In this document: positions 8,775 to 63,003 of the stretch, one piece after another
Numbering within the stretch: position 1 is the first letter of the stretch
Layout of the letters: every line of letters begins with the position of its first letter
NCBI GenBank assembly: GCA_947084965.1
Contig: CAMTUG010000004.1
Coordinates: 23,490 to 87,489, forward strand
Source: an uncultured Parcubacteria group bacterium
Lineage (GTDB): Bacteria; Patescibacteriota; Patescibacteriia; UBA9934; CAMTUG01
DNA: 64,000 nucleotides
Direction: 5' to 3'
Notes under the pieces: generated by a model
Database searches by the model: none
Told to the model about the DNA's origin: nothing
What the model saw: the letters and a program-made list of their open reading frames with translations, nothing else
Position numbers and translations under genes: made by a program

Positions 8775-10037
8775 ATGCGTTTTCCAACAGAAGCCTCCCT
8801 CAGCGATTTGAGTCTCGATAAATTTGGGCATCGAGAACTGGCCAAAAACCTTGTAGCAAATGTTTTTTTGGAGATGGAGCTTCCGAACACCTTTGGCATA
8901 TACGGAAATTGGGGAACGGGAAAATCAACCTTCTTGCAGGCAGTCCAAGGGGAACTTACAAACAATGCAGATGCAAGAGACATACTTGCTATCAGATTTG
9001 ATCCGTGGAAATACGAGTACGCTGATCATATTGATCTGTTTACAGCTTTGATAAGTGATTTCAGAGAGCAGGCTAAAATTCCAAAAACAAATGAGGTTTG
9101 GAATGATCTCACAAGCGCAATGCTTGGCATATCAACTTCTATCTTCAAAAAACTGCTCCATAAAGCAAGTGCAGGGATGCTTGATGTGGATGACATGCGC
9201 GCCGAGGCTAATCTGGCCGCTACGGCATTTCCCGAGGATCAATTTGAACAAGCCGATCTGGTTCAACAACTGCGTGGAAAGCTCAACAATCTCATACAGG
9301 TTGCTCTTACGGAGAACACGAAAAAGCGCGTTTGCATCTTCATCGATGATCTTGACCGATGCTCCCCAGAGCATACAGTTACACTTTTGGAAGCGATAAA
9401 AAACTTTCTACTTACCAGCAACGTACTATTCGTTTTTGCACTGGACCGTCGCATCGTTTCTGAGATGATCGAGAAAAAATATGGTCTGCACTCTGGCTAT
9501 GGGGACGAATATCTAACAAAAATTATTCAGTACTCGCTCACACTTCCCGCGCCAACTCATGAAGGTATTTTGAGCGATATCCTTGCTGATCACCTCATTG
9601 AAATGCCGAAGGACACACAGGGTTGGATTATCAGATTTACCAATAGATTCGCGAATGAAACACGAAAATTCAAACAATTGGTTTACCAGTTAATTACGCA
9701 AGCAAAATTGGGAGGCATTGATCTTTCAAAAGACGCTCCGCTTGATACTACAAGTCTATTCTGTGCTATTTATTTGAAGTCTCGTTTTCCAAAACTTTTT
9801 CATGTCAGTCGAAAAGCGGCTCTTGAAAACATTAAAACCTATGGTTCTATGATTTCGGCTGAAACTGATAATAAGCCAGAAAAAGCTCGTGACTTCGCAA
9901 GTCAGTTGGGCATATCGGGGGAAGAGAGAAAAATATTGACTGAATTGTTTATTTTCCAAATGCCAAACAACAAAGGGCTCATGAACGAGAATCGTCATAA
10001 GCTCGAGGAAGCAGGTTTTTCGAGAATGATCGATTAG
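8775..10037 (+). CDS. KAP-family P-loop NTPase
   Basis: KAP-type Walker A GIYGNWGTGKST (GxWGxGKS) and Walker B FIDDLDRC. Confidence 0.75.
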   Translation: MRFPTEASLSDLSLDKFGHRELAKNLVANVFLEMELPNTFGIYGNWGTGKSTFLQAVQGELTNNADARDILAIRFDPWKYEYADHIDLFTALISDFREQAKIPKTNEVWNDLTSAMLGISTSIFKKLLHKASAGMLDVDDMRAEANLAATAFPEDQFEQADLVQQLRGKLNNLIQVALTENTKKRVCIFIDDLDRCSPEHTVTLLEAIKNFLLTSNVLFVFALDRRIVSEMIEKKYGLHSGYGDEYLTKIIQYSLTLPAPTHEGILSDILADHLIEMPKDTQGWIIRFTNRFANETRKFKQLVYQLITQAKLGGIDLSKDAPLDTTSLFCAIYLKSRFPKLFHVSRKAALENIKTYGSMISAETDNKPEKARDFASQLGISGEERKILTELFIFQMPNNKGLMNENRHKLEEAGFSRMID

Positions 10038-34113: not shown

Positions 34114-34701
34114 TTAAAAATCGATTCCTTCACGCGCTTTCACGCCGGAGTAAAAGTAATGTTTGTGTAAAACGACTTCGGACACAAGATGCGCTTTTGT
34201 TTTGAATGACTCCGGAGCGTTGCGACCTGTTAAAATCAACTCAAGTTTGTCCGGTTTTTGATCAAGCAATTTCAACACCTCCGCTTCGTCGAGAAACCCG
34301 AGCGCCGTACTCGAATTCACTTCATCGAGAACGATCAAGTCATACACATTATTGGCAAATAGTTCTCGCGCTTTAGTAATTCCTTCCGCCCCGAGCTTGC
34401 GATCAACATCGGTCACCGAAAAATCAAATCGACCACTGACCGGATCGATCCGATCGCGCCCAAAGGCAAACCAATCCACGCCGATCTGATCAAACACACT
34501 CCGTTCCATGTAGTGCTCTCCACCTTTGTCGAAATAAAGAAACGCCGCCCGCTTCCCCGCCCCAACTGTGCGCACGCACGACCCGATCGCACTGGTCGTT
34601 TTCCCTTTCCCGTCGCCGGTCACAACCTGAATCAACCCATACCCTTGGCGTCCTTTAATCCGCTCGTCAAGTTCCGGCGCTCCTGATACAGTGTTTTCCA
34701 T
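34114..34701 (-). CDS. cobO: cob(I)yrinic acid a,c-diamide adenosyltransferase
   Basis: CobA/CobO P-loop GLIQVVTGDGKGKTTSAIG. Confidence 0.75.
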   Translation of the reverse strand: MENTVSGAPELDERIKGRQGYGLIQVVTGDGKGKTTSAIGSCVRTVGAGKRAAFLYFDKGGEHYMERSVFDQIGVDWFAFGRDRIDPVSGRFDFSVTDVDRKLGAEGITKARELFANNVYDLIVLDEVNSSTALGFLDEAEVLKLLDQKPDKLELILTGRNAPESFKTKAHLVSEVVLHKHYFYSGVKAREGIDF

Positions 34702-35481
34702 ATGACCTACGACGAACTACGAAATGAAATTCTGACCAAAGGATATCATGAAGTTCCTTTCTCCGTCCCACGCTCGGCAGTCGAACTAGCGATCGCTCGC
34801 TATTTTGATTTTCTTACTCTGTCTGATGAAGAAAAGAACCGCTGGACGATTCACTTGAAGAGGGATGAAAACGATCGTGGTTCAGAGCTCGGGCATTGGC
34901 GAAGGCAATCCAAAACGGGATTCGGTTACGACGATAAGGAATTTTTTCATTATAACGCAGAGTTTCGTAACCGCTTCCGCAATGATCCAACAGCCCCACC
35001 AGAACTCACGGCGTTCATCGACGCTACAGAACCGATCTACCAGGCCGCTATGAGTTCTATCCAGTCCATGCTCGATATTGTCGGAGAAAAATATCCGAAC
35101 GTCGCCGATCCTTACAATGAACTGAGTGTCCTCAGGTTCCTTAAATACGACCGAGCCCCGGCGGGAGAATTTTTGGCGCGGGGCCATTACGATCGTGGGG
35201 GTTGTTCATTGGCGATTGCAGAGAGTGCCCCAGGGCTTCGCATCGGTCACACCGAACGCGATCTTAAAGAGGTCACCCACCAGGAAGGAAAGGCGTTCTT
35301 CTTCCCAGCCCTGTTTATGGATCAGAAGACAAACGGAGAATTTCCACCAAGTTGGCATGACGTCGTACAAAAATCCGAGAACGCATTTCGACCAGACACA
35401 GCTCGTTGGGCGATCGTCTTTTTTGCCACACCGAACGAACCGTCCTACTTTGACCGCGAACTGGTTCACACTTCGCGTTAA
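34702..35481 (+). CDS. 2OG-Fe(II) oxygenase superfamily protein
   Basis: HxD (GHYDRGG) ... H (SWHDV) ... R arrangement. Confidence 0.45.
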   Translation: MTYDELRNEILTKGYHEVPFSVPRSAVELAIARYFDFLTLSDEEKNRWTIHLKRDENDRGSELGHWRRQSKTGFGYDDKEFFHYNAEFRNRFRNDPTAPPELTAFIDATEPIYQAAMSSIQSMLDIVGEKYPNVADPYNELSVLRFLKYDRAPAGEFLARGHYDRGGCSLAIAESAPGLRIGHTERDLKEVTHQEGKAFFFPALFMDQKTNGEFPPSWHDVVQKSENAFRPDTARWAIVFFATPNEPSYFDRELVHTSR

Positions 35482-35942
35482 GGATTCTCCCGTCGCCATT
35501 TGATGATCTCGATCGCGGCGAGGGCAGCCTCGATCCCTTTGTTGTTGTCGTTGTCGCCACCACGGGCGATGACCTGTTCGATCGAGGTGACCGGCAGGAC
35601 CTCGATCAAGATCGGGATGTCGTTGTCATGCATCGCGCGCACAAACCCTTGTTCAATCATGTTTAGAATGAGATCGAAGTGATACGTCTCCCCTTTCATA
35701 ATCACCCCGAAGCAAACGATCGCATCAAACGTTTTACTCTTAGCCAAACGATCAGCGGCGAGCGGAAGTTCGAGCGAACCTGGGAGGACGTGCAGCTCTG
35801 ATGTCGCCCCGGCCGCACCCAAAATCTCCACGCACTTCTCGACCATCAGATTCGTTTCATCGCTGTGCCACTTTGATTGAAGAATCGCAACCTTGGTCCC
35901 TTCGATCTTCGGCAGGTTCTCGGTCGAATAGTGATGTTGCAT
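35478..35942 (-). CDS. ribH: 6,7-dimethyl-8-ribityllumazine synthase
   Basis: RibH fold motifs (KVAILQSKWH...VLPGSLELP...); the annotated N-terminal extension runs into a REP element, so start is taken at MQHHYS. Confidence 0.75.
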   Translation of the reverse strand: MQHHYSTENLPKIEGTKVAILQSKWHSDETNLMVEKCVEILGAAGATSELHVLPGSLELPLAADRLAKSKTFDAIVCFGVIMKGETYHFDLILNMIEQGFVRAMHDNDIPILIEVLPVTSIEQVIARGGDNDNNKGIEAALAAIEIIKWRRENP

Positions 35943-35947
35943 AGTTT

Positions 35948-35973
35948 GTATAGGCGGGGCCACTGCGCCCCGC
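35948..35973. repeat. REP-like palindrome tataGGCGGGGCcactgcGCCCCGCC
   Basis: Imperfect palindrome recurring six times in the window. Confidence 0.7.
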
Positions 35974-35978
35974 CGCGA

Positions 35979-36605
35979 TTAATCGACCCGATAATCTGGA
36001 TTCACGTAAAGATATGGATAATCCCTTGGCCTTGCCGCAAGTCCATCTTCTACTGGATTTTCCATTATGTAAAGGATCTTCTCCTCGAGCTTCCGTTCAT
36101 TGAGGATAAGATAGTCAAAAAACGAGTCCTGCCAAATCTTTTTTATATCTCGGCTTGGCGGGGCAGAGTCGCCCCGCCTATACGATGGTTCGTTAACGGA
36201 TGAACGCTGGTCTGAGCTTGAACCTTGTATTATAGGCGGGGCCACTGCGCCCCGCCTCGCCGATTCATCCGCGTACCATCGAGCAAAATAACTCTTTACA
36301 CCGTGCATATAATCCGAAAACGTTTTCTCTTTTGTCTGCGGCCAGATAATCGCGTGAAAATGATCCGGCATGACGACCGCGGCGATGAGCTCAACTTTAA
36401 AGCGGTCTGCGTAAAAGTGAAGTTCCTCGAGGAGCTTGCGAGCGCATACTTCATCTCTAAATATCTCCGCCCGCCCATGCGTCACCGAGGTTACGTAGTG
36501 CGGTGTGTCCTCGTGGACAAAAAGAGCGTGATAGCGAGGGGAACGCATACGAACTAAAGCGCATATTTTCCAATCGTCGTGCAAAAATCGTAAGTCTTTT
36601 CCCAA
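35979..36605 (-). CDS. IS200-like / REP-associated tyrosine transposase (RAYT), with an in-frame REP-pair insertion
   Basis: HUH motif PDHFHAIIW, C-terminal YIMENPV; two REP palindromes at 36157-36256 lie inside the ORF. Confidence 0.6.
   Translation of the reverse strand: MGKDLRFLHDDWKICALVRMRSPRYHALFVHEDTPHYVTSVTHGRAEIFRDEVCARKLLEELHFYADRFKVELIAAVVMPDHFHAIIWPQTKEKTFSDYMHGVKSYFARWYADESARRGAVAPPIIQGSSSDQRSSVNEPSYRRGDSAPPSRDIKKIWQDSFFDYLILNERKLEEKILYIMENPVEDGLAARPRDYPYLYVNPDYRVD
36157..36182. repeat. REP-like palindrome (GGCGGGGCagagtcGCCCCGCCtata)
   Basis: Same family, inverted relative to the 36231 copy. Confidence 0.7.
36231..36256. repeat. REP-like palindrome
   Basis: Identical to the 35948 copy. 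Confidence 0.7.
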
Positions 36606-36777
36606 TTGCCAGTACTAGTATCTTCACTTGTCCCCTCCATAACTCGATCTAGGCATCTCGAAATCCTTAGATCGTCCAAGATCGGCCAAACAACCAAGCG
36701 AAATAGAATCGAGCAGGAAACAATCCCTGTTCCAATTATTATCGTCCAAGTTAGTTTTTTACCCATACTATAAGGAG

Positions 36778-36810
36778 GTGGTGGGACTCAGTGGCCCCGC
36801 CATAATTAAC
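36778..36810. repeat. degenerate REP-like copy
   Basis: ggtgggactcagtggccccgccataattaa compared with the 37010 copy. Confidence 0.45.
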
Positions 36811-37009
36811 CCAGGGCCAGAGTATTCCAAGCAGCTCGAGCAGTATCTTCATTATCGAATAACCGTTCGGGAATATGGACAACCTGAGTTCGGCTGGCTT
36901 CCGGCCAATCATAAATCACCCACCGATCGCCCCAATTAACGAGTTCATGTTTCAAGCCCAGGGCATCTATAAATTCAGCAACAACTTTTTTAGGCACATC
37001 TTACGCAAA

Positions 37010-37034
37010 GGCGGGGCACAGTGGCCCCGCCTAT
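37010..37034. repeat. REP-like palindrome
   Basis: GGCGGGGCacagtgGCCCCGCCtataattaa. Confidence 0.7.
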
Positions 37035-37267
37035 AATTAACCAATTATCTCAGGGCCGCTAATTTTCCAGGCACCCGCTCCGGTCAACTTCACTGTCGTT
37101 CTGCCAGAAACGGCCTTGATCCCAACTTGACCGTGCGTTTCTTTCGTCCAACCATTCCCACCCCCGACGATCTCCAGCACTGGGCTGATCTCAGCTTTCT
37201 TACCAAAATCGAGACCAAGGTTTCCAATCAATGTAGGTTTCAAATCAAACATAAATTTTATTGCTCT

Positions 37268-40200
37268 TTAACTACATCCGCTCGTGGCCCCGCAGTTCAA
37301 GCACTTGTAGCAAGCGGCGTTGCGCACCATCATCGATCCGCAGGTGGCGCAGGCTGGAGCGTCGGACTGGTTGTCGAAGGTAGAGGTGTGCGTCACTGTG
37401 GTCGCTTTGGCTGGAGCGTTGGCAGCGAGCGGTTCGGCAAAGATGTTCGCTTGTTGCACTTTTGGTTCATCCGTACCGACAGCGGCGGCGACTTCGGCGG
37501 CCTTCTCAACGACTTCGAAGTTCACGCCTACTTCGCGCTGTTCGTCAGGCGACAAGAACTTGAGCGCCATCCAGCGGAAGATATAATCGACCGTTGACTT
37601 GGCGATACGGATATGTTCGTTGTTGGTGAATCCGCTCGGTTCAAAACGGGTGTGTACGAATTTGTTGACGAGGACATGAAGCGGCACACCGTACTGCAAA
37701 CCGATCGAAACCGAAGTGGCGAAGGAATTCATGAGACCAGAGACGACGGAACCGTCCTTGCTCATGGTGATGAACAACTCGCCTGGCTGCCCATCATCAA
37801 ACAATCCAACGGTGATGTACCCTTCATGTCCACCGATCGAGAACTTGTGGGTGATCGAGCGACGTTCGTCTGGCAAACGGCGGCGGCGCGGAGTGGTATC
37901 GACGACCGCGGCAACCGATTTTGATTTTCCAGATTGATCTTTGTCTTGGCTGGTGGTCAACGGCTGTTGACGCTTGGAACCGTCACGATAAATAGCGACC
38001 GCTTTCAATCCAAGACGCGCCCCTTCCATGTACACCTCGGCAATATCTTCTGGGGTGACGTCGCTCGGCATGTTGACCGTCTTTGAAATCGCGCCAGAAA
38101 CGAACGGTTGCACCGCGGCCATCATCCGCACGTGACCCATGTAGCCGATCGAGCGCGTGCCATTCTTGGCTTTAAACGCGCAATCGAAGATCGGCAAATG
38201 AGCGTCTTGAATATGCGGAGCGCCTTCGATCGTATCTTTTTCATCGATGTACTTCAGAATGTCATCGATCTGTTCCTTGGAATACTGCAGGCGCGCTAGT
38301 GCTTCTGGAACGGTTTGGTTGACGATCTTGACCATTCCACCACCGACCAGCCACTTGTATTTAACTAAGGCAAGATCTGGTTCGATCCCGGTCGTGTCAC
38401 AATCCATAAAGAAGGCGATCGTACCGGTTGGAGCGATAACGGAAATTTGCGAGTTCTTCAAACCGAATTTGTCGCCGTGCTCTACCACCTTCTCCCAGGC
38501 CTGACGGTGGGCAGCTTGCAAATCCGCTGGCACGCCGATGTCGGAAACTTGATACGCAGCGTCGCGGTGCATGCGCATCACTTCCATACACGGCTCGGCG
38601 TTCTTTTTGAATCCGTTAAATGGGCCGGTCTTTTCTGCAATCAAGGCGGACTGATCGTAACATTCGCCAGATAACAACGAGGTGATCGCCGCGCAGAAGT
38701 TACGGGCTTCGTCCGAATCGTAAGCCATGCCGCGCGACATGAGGAGCGCGCCCAAGTTGGCATAACCGATCCCGAGCGGACGATAGTCGTGCGAGTTCTG
38801 TTCAATCGACGGCGTTGGGTAGGAGGAGAATCCAACCGAGATTTCCATCGCCGTGATAACCGTGCGTGACGCTTTGGCGAATGACTCGACGTCAAATTCC
38901 ATCGTCTTTCCGTCTGCACTCGGCTTGCGGAACTTCATCAGGTTAAGCGACGCCAAGTTGCAGGCGGTGTCGTTCAAGAACATGTATTCACTGCACGGGT
39001 TGGAGGCATGGATGCGGTCGGTGTTCTTGCAGGTGTGCCACTTGTTGATCGTGGTGTCGTACTGCACGCCCGGATCGCCGCAGTGCCAGGCCGCTTCGGA
39101 CATCATTTTCATCAGATCGCGCGCTTTGAATTTAACCGATTCTTTGCCGGTCGTTACTTCCTTGGTGACCCATTCGCCGTCGTTCTCAACCGCACGAACG
39201 AATTCATCGGTAATGCGCACCGAGTTGTTGGCGTTCTGGAAATAGATCGAAGAATAGGCCGGGCCATCGATCGAACCGTCGTAGCCGGCGTCCATCAACG
39301 CCCAGGCTTTCTTTTCCTCTTCTGATTTACACTTGATGAATTCCTCAACGTCCGGGTGATCGATATTCAAAATAACCATCTTAGCCGCTCGGCGTGTTTT
39401 GCCGCCGGACTTAATCACACCCGCAAAGGCGTCGAGACCTTTCATGAAACTGATCGGGCCTGATGAGCGACCGTTTGATCCGCCCAAGAATTCTTTGCTC
39501 GAACGCAGCGGCGACAAATTGACCCCTGATCCTGAACCACCTTTAAAAATCATCCCCTCTGTGGTGCACAGGTGCAGAATCGAACGCATGTCATCGCTGA
39601 CCGAATTGATGAAACAGGCCGAGCACTGCGGGTGCGGATTGACCCCCACGTTAAACCAGACCGGCGAGTTAAAGGCCGCCATCTGGTGGACAAGAATATG
39701 AGTCAATTCGTGTTCGTAAATCTCGGCATCCTCGGCTGTTTGGAAATACCCGCCAGCGCGGCCCCAGTTGGACATCGTCACCGCCACGCGCGAAACGAGT
39801 TGTTTGACGCTCGTCTCACGATCAGCTTGGCCAACTTTGCCACGGAAATATTTTTGCACCACGATATTGGTTGCTGTCTGCGACCAAAAGTCTGGAACTT
39901 CAACGTCGGTCTGTTCAAAAATAACGCCGCCCTTTTCGTTGGTAATTTTGGCTGTGCGCTTGACCCAGTTGATCAGGTCGTACGGATGCTTACCCGGAGT
40001 AGTGAAATAACGCTGCCAGGCAAGGCCGTGTCCGTATTTTGGTTCTGTGGAAACCGCGCGAGCATCAAACTTGGCTTGGGCGTACTTTTTCGAAATGTGG
40101 ACGAGGTTGTGATCGATACAGGTCAAGTTGATGACTTCGCGGATCGCCGCCGTCTTCGGAACGGTGTGTCCATCATAGACGCGCTGTAGCCGACCGAGAA

Positions 40201-40417
40201 CCGTTTCGACAATTCGGTCGACCAACGTTTCGTCGCGTGTGCCGGCCGCGGCAAAGGCCTTAGCCACCGAAGCGCGCAACTTATCCTTAGAAAAATCTTC
40301 CTGACGCCCATCATCCTTGATGACAAACTTTAAACTGGTCATGTAGTTCCAAACGGCGTCGACAGCGCCACTGGCTGACTGGGTACCGACCTGCGTGGAT
40401 GGGGCGAAGTTGGACAT
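37268..40417 (-). CDS. nrdJ: class II adenosylcobalamin-dependent ribonucleotide reductase
   Basis: 1049 aa; N-terminal ATP-cone; RNR catalytic core with thiyl-radical Cys region; C-terminal Zn ribbon CATCG...CYKCLNCG. Confidence 0.85.
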   Translation of the reverse strand: MSNFAPSTQVGTQSASGAVDAVWNYMTSLKFVIKDDGRQEDFSKDKLRASVAKAFAAAGTRDETLVDRIVETVLGRLQRVYDGHTVPKTAAIREVINLTCIDHNLVHISKKYAQAKFDARAVSTEPKYGHGLAWQRYFTTPGKHPYDLINWVKRTAKITNEKGGVIFEQTDVEVPDFWSQTATNIVVQKYFRGKVGQADRETSVKQLVSRVAVTMSNWGRAGGYFQTAEDAEIYEHELTHILVHQMAAFNSPVWFNVGVNPHPQCSACFINSVSDDMRSILHLCTTEGMIFKGGSGSGVNLSPLRSSKEFLGGSNGRSSGPISFMKGLDAFAGVIKSGGKTRRAAKMVILNIDHPDVEEFIKCKSEEEKKAWALMDAGYDGSIDGPAYSSIYFQNANNSVRITDEFVRAVENDGEWVTKEVTTGKESVKFKARDLMKMMSEAAWHCGDPGVQYDTTINKWHTCKNTDRIHASNPCSEYMFLNDTACNLASLNLMKFRKPSADGKTMEFDVESFAKASRTVITAMEISVGFSSYPTPSIEQNSHDYRPLGIGYANLGALLMSRGMAYDSDEARNFCAAITSLLSGECYDQSALIAEKTGPFNGFKKNAEPCMEVMRMHRDAAYQVSDIGVPADLQAAHRQAWEKVVEHGDKFGLKNSQISVIAPTGTIAFFMDCDTTGIEPDLALVKYKWLVGGGMVKIVNQTVPEALARLQYSKEQIDDILKYIDEKDTIEGAPHIQDAHLPIFDCAFKAKNGTRSIGYMGHVRMMAAVQPFVSGAISKTVNMPSDVTPEDIAEVYMEGARLGLKAVAIYRDGSKRQQPLTTSQDKDQSGKSKSVAAVVDTTPRRRRLPDERRSITHKFSIGGHEGYITVGLFDDGQPGELFITMSKDGSVVSGLMNSFATSVSIGLQYGVPLHVLVNKFVHTRFEPSGFTNNEHIRIAKSTVDYIFRWMALKFLSPDEQREVGVNFEVVEKAAEVAAAVGTDEPKVQQANIFAEPLAANAPAKATTVTHTSTFDNQSDAPACATCGSMMVRNAACYKCLNCGATSGCS

Positions 40418-59941: not shown

Positions 59942-61945
59942 CTAAATCGACAACGCATCGCTCACCGCTAAAAACGTCGCGCCAACGTTGCCGTAACGAT
60001 CAAAGATACTTACGACGGATGACCCGCCACGCCCTTCTGTAGCGACGATTTCAGCGGTGCCGTCACCGTTGGTGTCCACGACACTCACCTGTACTCCCAA
60101 TCGATCTGCGGAATCAAAAGCGAAAAACTGGCCTTCCGGTTGGCCGTTTTGGTCGAAGATCCGCACTTGCGGACCACCGCCATTTCGCGGACCGGTGACG
60201 ATCTCTGCCACGCCATCACCGTCCACGTCCCCGACTGCAACATGTACTCCACCCAAAAATAATTCGGCGTAGGCAAAAAACTCGGTGCGCAGCGTTCCTG
60301 TCGATTCATACACACGCACCCGTGGTGCTTCTCCAGCCCCTGTGGCCGCAATAATCTCCGCAACCCCATCACCATCTACGTCACCCGTGGCAAGCGATAG
60401 ACCCAGAACAGACGTAGTAAACGGAACAAAACGTGCGAGCAACGCCCCTGTTCGGTCATACGTTCGAATTTCTGCTGAACTCCCCGAAGGATCGGAAACG
60501 ACGATCCTTCCATCGGCGACGGCAACTTCGACCCCGCCACGGAGTGACGCATCAAAGGCAAAGAATTGGCCGATCACCGCTCCGTTCAGATCAAAAATTC
60601 TCACCTGTGGGCCGCCACCCACCCCGGCACCGGTGACGATCTCTTGAACCCCATCGCCTGTGAGGTCACCGGTCGCTACCCGAACTCCACCCAAAAACGA
60701 TTCGGCATAAGCAAAAAACTCAGATGCTTGCACGCCGTCCGCGCCATACACACGAACGACCGGTGGCGCACCAGCAGCACTCCCGAGCACGATCGACTGC
60801 GGACCGCTCTCGGGATCAGACGACCCTGTGGTCGCGGCAGATCCGAGGAGTGCCTCGGCTACCTGCAGCGCCTTGGCGACATTTAATCGCCCTGGACCGA
60901 GCTCCCCATGATAGTACGTTCCGCGAGTGACAACCGGATCAGCCCCCAGCTTGAGCGCCAACTGCATCTGCGGCACAGAAATTGTTGGGAACGCCGCCTT
61001 GAGTAAAACCGCCGCCCCGCTCACCATCGGCGCGGCAACGGACGTTCCGGCGTAATACCCGTCGTACGGTTCCAAAAATGCCTCTTCGTCCAGATCGTAA
61101 TTCAGCGTTCCGAAAATAAACTCCCCTGGAGCACTCATGTCCGTACATCCGGAGCCATAATTGGAAAAGTCGGACTTGGTGTCTCCTTCATCAAGTGCAG
61201 CGACTCCAAAAACCCAATCTTCAATCGGGCTCATGATGCAGGCGGGGAACACTTGCCCCGCATTCAAATTCTCGTCATCGTTTCCAAGAGCCGCGACCGT
61301 AAAAATGCCGCGTCGATAAGCGGTGCGCAGAGCGTCTTCCAGATCCTGATCGAAAATAAACCCGGTGAAGCTTAAATTAATAACGTCTGCCCCGTTGTCG
61401 ATGGCATACTGAACGGCATTCGTCGCGGCAGTTGTGTCCCCACTGCCTTGCCCGTCCAAAATACGAATCGGCATGATTCGCACGCGCCAAGCGACCCCGG
61501 CAACCCCTTCATTGTTGTCGGCTTCGGCTCCGATCACCCCGGCAACGAGCGAACCGTGATTCATCGCATCCGGATCAAAACCGTTGGTGCTGTCAGGAAT
61601 CGGACTACTGTCATTGCCGACAAAATCCCAGCCGTGAAGATCATCGATGAATCCATTCGCATCATTATCCAAACCGTCACCGGCGATCTCGCCCGCATTG
61701 GTCCAGATCTGATCTTCCAAGTCAGGATGATCAATGTCTACACCGGCATCGATGACCGCCACCACCACATCACGGCTTCCGACCGTCACATCCCAAGCAT
61801 CCAGCGCGCCGATATGTGAAAAGTACCACTGCTCATGTAAGTACTCGTCATCAGGGACACGAGCAGACACCGGCATGGCCGTCGTCGCCAGCAAAAAAAG
61901 TAACAAAAACAATATCCGAGCTTTCATACCCGGATATTGTAGCAC
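59942..61945 (-). CDS. S8 (subtilisin) serine peptidase with C-terminal FG-GAP repeats
   Basis: Asp VIDAGVD, His HGSLVAG, Ser GTSVAAPMVSG; repeated GDxDGDGVAEI motifs. Confidence 0.75.
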   Translation of the reverse strand: MLQYPGMKARILFLLLFLLATTAMPVSARVPDDEYLHEQWYFSHIGALDAWDVTVGSRDVVVAVIDAGVDIDHPDLEDQIWTNAGEIAGDGLDNDANGFIDDLHGWDFVGNDSSPIPDSTNGFDPDAMNHGSLVAGVIGAEADNNEGVAGVAWRVRIMPIRILDGQGSGDTTAATNAVQYAIDNGADVINLSFTGFIFDQDLEDALRTAYRRGIFTVAALGNDDENLNAGQVFPACIMSPIEDWVFGVAALDEGDTKSDFSNYGSGCTDMSAPGEFIFGTLNYDLDEEAFLEPYDGYYAGTSVAAPMVSGAAVLLKAAFPTISVPQMQLALKLGADPVVTRGTYYHGELGPGRLNVAKALQVAEALLGSAATTGSSDPESGPQSIVLGSAAGAPPVVRVYGADGVQASEFFAYAESFLGGVRVATGDLTGDGVQEIVTGAGVGGGPQVRIFDLNGAVIGQFFAFDASLRGGVEVAVADGRIVVSDPSGSSAEIRTYDRTGALLARFVPFTTSVLGLSLATGDVDGDGVAEIIAATGAGEAPRVRVYESTGTLRTEFFAYAELFLGGVHVAVGDVDGDGVAEIVTGPRNGGGPQVRIFDQNGQPEGQFFAFDSADRLGVQVSVVDTNGDGTAEIVATEGRGGSSVVSIFDRYGNVGATFLAVSDALSI

Positions 61946-62977: not shown

Positions 62978-63003
62978 GGCGGGGCACGGTGGCCCCGCCT
63001 ATC
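62978..63003. repeat. REP-like palindrome (distant copy)
   Basis: GGCGGGGCacggtgGCCCCGCCtat. Confidence 0.65.

Follow-up and report, generated by a model that had tools for sequence, protein, structure and literature searches.

The 64,000-nucleotide stretch analysed here, in the following called the window, belongs to an uncultured Parcubacteria group bacterium (GenBank assembly GCA_947084965.1, contig CAMTUG010000004.1, positions 23,490 to 87,489). It contains a gene for a REP-associated tyrosine transposase (RAYT or TnpA_REP) of the HUH/Y1 type that is surrounded by a cluster of repetitive extragenic palindromic (REP) sequences, two of which are situated in frame within the transposase gene itself. 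Comparison with related loci, all of them from metagenome assemblies, demonstrates that the intragenic REP is an old, clade-wide feature and not the oddity of one gene. Probably, the locus represents the REPtron of an Uhrbacteria-like Patescibacteria genome, consisting of a vertically inherited RAYT and its cognate REPs, in which intragenic copies of the palindrome are tolerated.

The assignment of the gene, proposed in an earlier note that had been made from the letters alone, is borne out by profile searches. The product scores 103.9 bits with NCBIfam model NF047646 (REP_Tyr_transpos, cut-off 80) and 37.9 with Pfam Y1_Tnp (cut-off 23); the IS200 model NF033573 (transpos_IS200) yields 20.8 and stays below its cut-off of 55. 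The length of 208 residues given in that note stems from an over-extended open reading frame (ORF) starting at TTG. As all homologues begin with M-R/K-S-x-R, the start is the ATG at 36548 and the protein comprises 189 residues. W139-Q140 is invariant in an alignment of 51 RAYT sequences, as are the catalytic residues listed in Table 1, and Y160-IMENP matches the signature Y-x-x-x-N-P that Quentin et al. (PMC6006769) give for class 2 TnpA_REP. The AlphaFold (AF2) model has a mean pLDDT of 85.6, with values above 90 in the core, and its top match in the PDB is the TnpA_REP-REP complex from E. coli (4er8_A; Foldseek TM 0.67, E 5e-8, rmsd 2.3). A single RAYT copy is present in the window. In relatives, the gene order is class II ribonucleotide reductase (RNR), RAYT, (ribH) and CobA/BtuR, and because this RNR-RAYT-CobA neighbourhood is conserved, the RAYT is a vertically inherited, domesticated transposase. 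The core protein exhibits a dN/dS of 0.05-0.11 in the four closer pairs of homologues to which the calculation is confined, dS being saturated in most pairs. Such strong purifying selection speaks for a functional enzyme, as far as this can be judged from sequence.

When the whole window was searched for GGCGGGGC-N6-GCCCCGCC with up to two mismatches, seven matches were found against 0.06 expected from shuffled sequences. Requiring the flank leaves five strict REP copies, beginning at 35949, 36157, 36231, 37010 and 62978 (Table 1). Four good REPs and a degenerate one (36780-36805) make up the cluster at the RAYT locus. The five clustered copies of the earlier note are therefore real as a cluster, with the restriction that one of them is degenerate, and the sixth copy reported at 62978 is a REP as well. 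A conserved flank, described as TATA in that note, does exist and is better read as a 5'-ATAG foot on the 5' side of the stem. It directly precedes a GCGGGG(N) stem, the GC stem measuring 8-9 bp and enclosing a loop of 6 nucleotides. Classical REPs have a GTAG foot, the role of which is documented (PMC3479197), and ATAG is a variant of it. A palindrome with two mismatches at 61241-61262 was not counted as a REP; it is footless and forms part of a large ORF, in which it codes for NAGQVFPAC. Foot-first copies are found on opposite strands on either side of the RAYT gene, the layout of a REPtron, and the same applies to relatives. The REPs cluster strongly around the RAYT locus: away from it, one copy occurs in the window and about four are found in flanking sequences of relatives that total about 114 kb. 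Two of the six copies in the window reside inside the RAYT ORF, a departure from the extragenic location that REPs are named for.

These two intragenic copies are oppositely oriented and lie between the HUH and the tyrosine motif, and the reading frame is open through both, exactly as had been noted earlier. The 22-nucleotide core of internal REP 1 is identical to that of the external copy downstream of the gene (35953-35974), and the region of the latter (35949-35974) and 36231-36259 constitute a direct repeat with 28 of 29 positions identical. As a single strand, the 114-bp inverted repeat folds into one long REPIN-like hairpin in which the REPs are paired with each other (minimum free energy -35.7 kcal/mol, z = -4.98). 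On the protein level, the insertion of roughly 45 residues that was expected in the earlier note is confirmed by comparison with 4er8: residues 89-135 replace four residues between positions 85 and 90 of the E. coli enzyme, amounting to an insertion of about 41 residues. Residues 99-138 form the loop that connects helix alphaC (77-98) to strand beta4 (139-147). The model assigns no secondary structure to them and has pLDDT values of 52-57 for residues 101-130 and of 78 for residues 131-140, so that the REP-encoded peptides are predicted to form a disordered surface loop.

The occupied site is by no means peculiar to this gene. Each of the 16 homologues found in a first round (44-65% identity) features R-R-G-x-x-x-P-P-I at the same alignment position, with R99 and G100 invariant and P104 and P105 nearly so, and several contain a second RRG...PP further along. 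The RRG...PP signature is present in 31 of 36 clade proteins, namely those with a locatable HUH motif. DNA was obtained for 15 clade loci, and in every one of them a REP palindrome is found in the alphaC-beta4 loop of the RAYT ORF. It mostly occupies the codon position of the first copy; the single copy of locus L040 sits at the position of the second. A second, inverted internal REP is present in seven of the 15 loci and a degenerate second copy in two more. While the REPs align among relatives, the spacers between them differ in length and sequence and are not homologous. The clade is small, comprising only 11 clusters (50% identity) at E <= 1e-30 among 1.84 billion representatives, and its named members are Candidatus Uhrbacteria or Patescibacteria. 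The label "uncultured Gammaproteobacteria bacterium" attached to L002/L008 (CAYHFQ010000010.1) and L009 (CAZDDW010000011.1) looks doubtful: they carry close RAYT homologues and L002/L008 also exhibit the RNR-RAYT arrangement of Uhrbacteria/Patescibacteria metagenome-assembled genomes (MAGs).

This distribution bears on the reading implicit in the earlier note, i.e. that a REPIN inserted itself into this gene alone, once and recently, and may have left a pseudogene behind. The identity of internal REP 1 with the downstream external copy and the REPIN-like fold of the pair would be in line with such an event, but the idea is refuted by the comparative data and is now hardly credible: the same site is occupied in 15 of 15 related loci at protein identities of 40-65%, and two REPs are arranged in the same way in L117, the closest relative. 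A pseudogene was rejected in view of intact catalytic motifs and the dN/dS given above. The earlier note had set a conserved part of the transposase subfamily against a REP-derived segment as if the two were alternatives. Both descriptions apply, the segment being conserved in 15 of 15 loci and 31 of 36 proteins and at the same time homogenised with the REPs of its own genome.

Natural variants of the arrangement are informative. The gene for P0027 (41% identity) has an empty site, ...AKHTGRDVERLWQ, and yet five REPs of the same family lie within 280 bp upstream. For P0022, one "double-foot" copy was found and nothing else; the double foot occurs only in some relatives (L039, L125). In Candidatus Uhrbacteria LJ_bin-3226 (L010:9961-10360), the truncated RAYT gene runs precisely as far as the 3' foot of its internal REP. 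The remnant, composed of a REP, the N-terminal half of the gene and another REP, has an unrelated, convergently oriented membrane-protein gene as its neighbour and lies outside the RNR/CobA context, which suggests that the gene was broken at the internal REP by a deletion or transposition. In two relatives, the neighbouring RNR gene also contains REPs of the same family; they lie in frame within its C-terminal linker, where they encode EIGGVTAPRQET and similar peptides (L002:8769-8792; L125:8760-8783 and 9255-9278). The RNR-linker copies are read in a different frame, yielding (E/D)IGGVTAPRQET and ELGGATAPRPEE. The RNR gene of the window (37268-40417) contains no REP. As a separate observation, L123:3727-3974 (JGI 3300044451) features five REPs in 250 bp upstream of a RAYT without internal REP, and these fall into two compensatory stem variants, GGCGGGGC...GCCCCGCC and GGCGGCCC...GGGCCGCC.

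In more distant relatives (about 30% identity), the alphaC-beta4 loop contains either the same REP or palindromes that are different or degenerate. Many distant RAYTs contain long tandem peptide repeats, for example four times HSWFADISQPPSAG or three times SRRQEPPLL..., located either between alphaC and beta4 (P0071, P0079, P0085, P0107, P0149 and P0204) or between beta3 and alphaC (P0122, P0176, P0043, P0045 and L023:10001-10639). These tandem loop peptides are presumably translated REPs, and REPs in loops look widespread among RAYTs with WQ and YIHNNP-type motifs.

Conservation of the REP operates on the DNA and not on the protein level. In the 22 internal copies of the clade, 96.6% of the stem cells are paired, a value not reached in any of 500 shuffles, and double changes have occurred in four of the eight stem pairs. 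The pair adjacent to the loop is U-A in eight, G-C in seven and C-G in five of the copies. It joins the synonymous third base of a glycine codon to the first base of the alanine, threonine or proline codon that comes next, and the amino acid thus changes in order to keep the hairpin. Identity at third codon positions amounts to 0.89-1.0 for the REP codons in five of eight pairwise comparisons and to 0.56-0.67 in the other three, compared with 0.38-0.52 in the protein core. The REP arginine codons AGG and CGG are minor codons in the genome of the window (4% and 15%).

These data leave little room for an explanation in which RRGxxxPPI is a protein motif under selection, such as an arginine-rich contact to DNA, and the palindrome its by-product or even the source of the REPs in the genome. 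It would accord with such a motif that 20 of the 22 internal copies share one reading frame and that canonical RAYTs from other phyla possess R-[RKS]-G two to four residues ahead of the WQ strand (NRRGETVWQ, LGRSGSIWE), such that RRG may be ancestral. The codon-level covariation, with alanine, threonine and proline changes following a synonymous glycine third base, largely refutes this explanation. Moreover, rare arginine codons are fixed, third codon positions are conserved, the loop sequence is identical to that of external copies, AF2 shows no ordered structure in the core of the segment, and proteins with an empty site exist. We therefore regard a selected protein motif as highly improbable.

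The internal REPs evolve in concert with the external REPs of their own genome, and this applies to stem and loop. Ten of the 22 internal copies are identical in 22 of 22 positions to an external copy of the same locus, whereas their mean identity to the REPs of other genomes is about 17.5 of 22. The internal copies of L005, L121 and L122 share a GGGGG/CCCCC stem and the loop ATGGGA; the external copies of L005 and L122 have the same stem and loop, and the one external copy seen in L121 has a loop of 7 nucleotides. In L120, the internal REP equals the copy after the stop codon, and in L039 each of the two internal REP types has its own identical counterpart among the external copies. As REP loops differ freely between genomes, shared constraint cannot explain the identity within a genome, and some exchange or renewal of the copies must take place.

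How this state may have arisen can be outlined as follows. By analogy with characterised TnpA_REP, the RAYT would bind the folded single-stranded REP hairpin together with its 5' foot and would cut and rejoin single-stranded DNA; the E. coli enzyme binds hairpin and foot in single-stranded DNA, with cleavage and joining close by (PMC3479197, PMC8266576). At or before the origin of the clade, a REP, a REP pair or a REPIN could have landed in the codons of the alphaC-beta4 loop. Frame-breaking versions would have been purged by purifying selection on the enzyme, and the REPs may persist as translated filler (RRGxxxPP) because the loop is disordered and because selection removes frame-breakers. 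The REP-likeness of synonymous sites and the tracking of external variants imply that internal copies keep being overwritten or re-seeded, possibly through RAYT-mediated copy-in next to an existing REP or through gene conversion. The concentration of REPs near the RAYT gene and in RNR linkers might reflect local action of the enzyme, with survival only where insertions are tolerated. It is most likely that the intragenic REPs are tolerated rather than required, because variants with empty sites and degenerate copies exist and REPs are also found in the linker of the neighbouring RNR.

Some observations weigh against this proposal. Only one dispersed REP copy is present within 64 kb. Repeats can be misassembled in metagenome assemblies, although two independent assemblies give an identical protein. 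The internal copies of L009 and L119 differ from the nearby external REP and have kept their pairing by compensatory or G-T changes. In these cases, selection could have acted on the hairpin in place, an interpretation that would speak for a functional role; it should be kept in mind that only about 20 kb of these genomes were seen and that matching external variants may exist elsewhere.

Such a role could consist in a cis-element, either for autoregulation through the enzyme's own gene (single-stranded DNA during replication) or its mRNA, or as a sheltered "master" REP that keeps enzyme and substrate co-inherited. Apart from L009 and L119, it would be consistent with this that the hairpin is conserved at the nucleotide level while synonymous sites of the clade are otherwise saturated, that the truncation in L010 marks the REP as a recombinogenic site, and that Quentin et al. 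(PMC6006769) place the alphaC-beta4 region near the REP-recognition surface. Self-limitation or a permanently linked master copy of the substrate would, if true, also explain why the hairpin is retained throughout a clade of genome-reduced bacteria. On the other hand, the identity of loops with external copies of the same genome is explained by copying and not by selection in place, internal copies in L011, L040 and L012 are mismatched or degenerate, and two clade members combine an empty site with an otherwise intact protein. In addition, copy number, orientation and spacing vary freely and in-frame REPs occur in the RNR linker, where no such role is expected. Altogether, we consider a functional cis-element unlikely and tolerance of the intragenic copies the better description.

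Table 1. Coordinates of features at the RAYT locus and of the dispersed REP within the 64-kb window.
Feature	Position	Strand	Remarks
RAYT/TnpA_REP coding sequence, 189 aa	35979-36548	-	ATG 36548, stop 35979-35981; identical to database protein P0001
HUH motif H63-F64-H65 in PDHFH	36354-36362	-	on beta3; D62, H63 and H65 invariant, 51-sequence alignment
Catalytic tyrosine motif Y160-IMENP165	36054-36071	-	Y160, N164 and P165 invariant, 51-sequence alignment
Internal REP 1 (first in gene order)	36231-36256	+	ATAG foot reads on +; encodes R98-R-G-A-V-A-P-P-I106
Internal REP 2	36157-36182	-	inverted relative to REP 1; encodes Y-R-R-G-D-S-A-P-P-S
Spacer between internal REPs, 48 nt	36183-36230	-	encodes IQGSSSDQRSSVNEPS; not conserved among relatives
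Extended inverted repeat	36150-36263	.	33-nt arms, 85% complementary; 114 bp = 38 codons
alphaC-beta4 loop, residues 99-138	36135-36254	-	AF2 coil, mostly low confidence; holds REP-encoded peptides
External REP	35949-35974	+	in 36-nt gap between RAYT stop and ribH start
External REP	37010-37035	-	immediately after stop of 71-aa ORF
Degenerate REP	36780-36805	-	immediately after stop of 63-aa ORF
Dispersed REP	62978-63003	-	foot GATAG; intergenic
Tiny ORF, 70 aa	36554-36766	-	hydrophobic N-terminus; just upstream of RAYT start; L117 homologue with 29% identity, E 2e-10
Tiny ORF, 63 aa	36806-36997	-	50% identical homologue upstream of RAYT in L117
Tiny ORF, 71 aa	37037-37252	-	stop abuts REP 37010-37035; called as gene in L001
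Class II ribonucleotide reductase	37268-40417	-	Pfam; conserved upstream neighbour of RAYT clade
ribH, lumazine synthase, 154 aa	35478-35942	-	Pfam DMRL_synthase 121 bits; gene call in independent assembly L001
Corrinoid adenosyltransferase CobA/BtuR	34114-34701	-	Pfam 163 bits; conserved downstream neighbour

Turning to the neighbouring genes (Table 1), the encroachment of a REP on the N-terminus of ribH that was described in the earlier note does not hold. The gene starts with the ATG at 35942 and the REP at 35949-35974 is intergenic; an overlap arises only when the ORF is extended to a GTG. Conversely, the association of REPs with tiny ORFs described there is well founded, since the REPs at 37010 and 36780 directly follow stop codons and two of the tiny ORFs, situated between RNR and RAYT, are conserved at the corresponding position in L117. 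The ORFs of 63 and 71 residues both end with G-TAA-TTAT, directly followed by a REP, and the degenerate REP at 36780-36805 and the REP at 37010 have the flank GGTTAATTAT in common. The 63- and 70-residue ORFs are without a Pfam match, and for the 71-residue ORF no homologue was found in Pfam or by comparison with L117. A gene for 53 residues called at 36751-36912 in an independent assembly was dropped in favour of the 63-residue ORF, which has a homologue. Scanning of 35400-37400 for promoters and terminators gave nothing above shuffled background, and a terminator role of the REPs is thus unsupported by that scan. An ORF for 259 residues on the plus strand (34702-35481) lies between ribH and cobA and overlaps the stop of ribH by 4 nucleotides; it has a sub-threshold match to 2OG-Fe(II) oxygenases (17.1 bits, cut-off 23). 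Relatives have other genes or nothing between RAYT/ribH and cobA.

Some other organisms/metagenomes feature RAYT domains in unusual open frames. In a Phycisphaerales MAG (JALOQT010000061.1, L025:3425-6271), a RAYT domain is present within an uninterrupted frame of 949 residues for leucyl-tRNA synthetase (LeuRS), where it separates the catalytic portion at the N-terminus from the editing domain (Pfam tRNA-synt_1, Y1_Tnp, tRNA-synt_1_2), and REP-encoded peptides (GTPDLRAG) are found on both sides of it. An entire REPtron could have become lodged in frame within LeuRS, the LeuRS could be split, or the frame could be open by chance in DNA of high GC content. A RAYT domain is also located in the frame of an N6/N4 DNA methyltransferase in a Chloroflexota MAG (L015:8975-12118) and in a MAG labelled Gammaproteobacteria (L024:9365-10462), two unrelated MAGs in which it apparently occupies the same position of the methylase. 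In L022:9095-10288, thiamine-phosphate synthase (ThiE) is followed by a RAYT in one open frame.

What the present locus adds is that a curiosity reported so far for RAYTs of Cyanobacteria and Bacteroidetes also occurs in the candidate phyla radiation, together with comparative evidence in the form of synonymous-site conservation, concerted evolution and natural variants that are empty, single, double or truncated at the REP. The finding alone reveals no new mechanism. The clade offers a natural test set both for the copying of REPs by RAYTs (local action, insertion beside existing REPs) and for the absorption of palindromic repeats into protein loops of compact genomes.

In-frame REPs in RAYT genes as such have already been published: Quentin, Siguier, Chandler and Fichant (2018, BMC Genomics 19:475; PMC6006769) describe in-frame REP insertions in tnpA_REP genes of subclass 2.4 (Bertels group 4) and judge them to be located in peripheral loops. 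The present case comes from Patescibacteria and concerns a different loop. Common to both are REPs that flank the gene and lie in frame between the HUH and tyrosine motifs, a peripheral variable region as the site of insertion, and a low-copy gene. According to the same paper, subclass 2.4 has the signature NH[IFV]H / WQ / YIxNNP, whereas DHFH / WQ / YIMENP is found in the window and DHxH and YIx[QRHE]NP in its clade. The insertion is modelled between beta3 and alphaC in subclass 2.4 and lies between alphaC and beta4 in the window. The REPs of subclass 2.4 are long or "double foot" with GT[AG]G, those of the window have a short stem and a single ATAG foot, and the hosts are Cyanobacteria, Bacteroidetes and others instead of Patescibacteria. 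Occupancy of one loop throughout a clade, conservation at synonymous sites and concerted evolution are features of the clade described here that were not found in the consulted passages of that paper. Since some next-tier relatives combine YIHNNP with long repetitive in-frame inserts in either loop, the clade may, on sequence grounds, be a Patescibacteria offshoot near subclass 2.4.

The biochemically characterised counterpart is the REPtron of E. coli (4ER8; Messing et al., 2012, PMC3479197; Corneloup et al., 2021, PMC8266576). Its TnpA_REP shares the fold and the catalytic HUH and tyrosine residues with the RAYT of the window, and both systems feature cognate flanking hairpins with a 5' tetranucleotide foot ending in AG. 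The loop differs, with four residues in E. coli TnpA_REP versus about 45 in the protein of the window. Unlike the REPs reported here, those of E. coli carry a GTAG foot, form imperfect palindromes with bulges and are confined to extragenic sites. Enzymatic activity is demonstrated for E. coli TnpA_REP and would be expected for the RAYT of the window by analogy only. Insertion of REPs and of Rickettsia palindromic elements (RPE) in frame into other genes is documented (Di Nocera et al., 2013, PMC3733652), and these "REP-decorated" proteins resemble the present case in that palindromes reside in frame in genes for functional proteins of compact genomes. In contrast to the Rickettsia elements, which lack an associated RAYT gene carrying them, the host gene in the window is that of the presumed mobilising enzyme. 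The REPINs of Pseudomonas fluorescens (Bertels and Rainey, 2011, PMC3116915) likewise consist of inverted REPs and a spacer that fold as one hairpin and are accompanied by a single-copy, vertically inherited RAYT. They are extragenic and present in hundreds of copies, whereas the pair in the window is coding, its spacer is unconserved and the REP population appears small.

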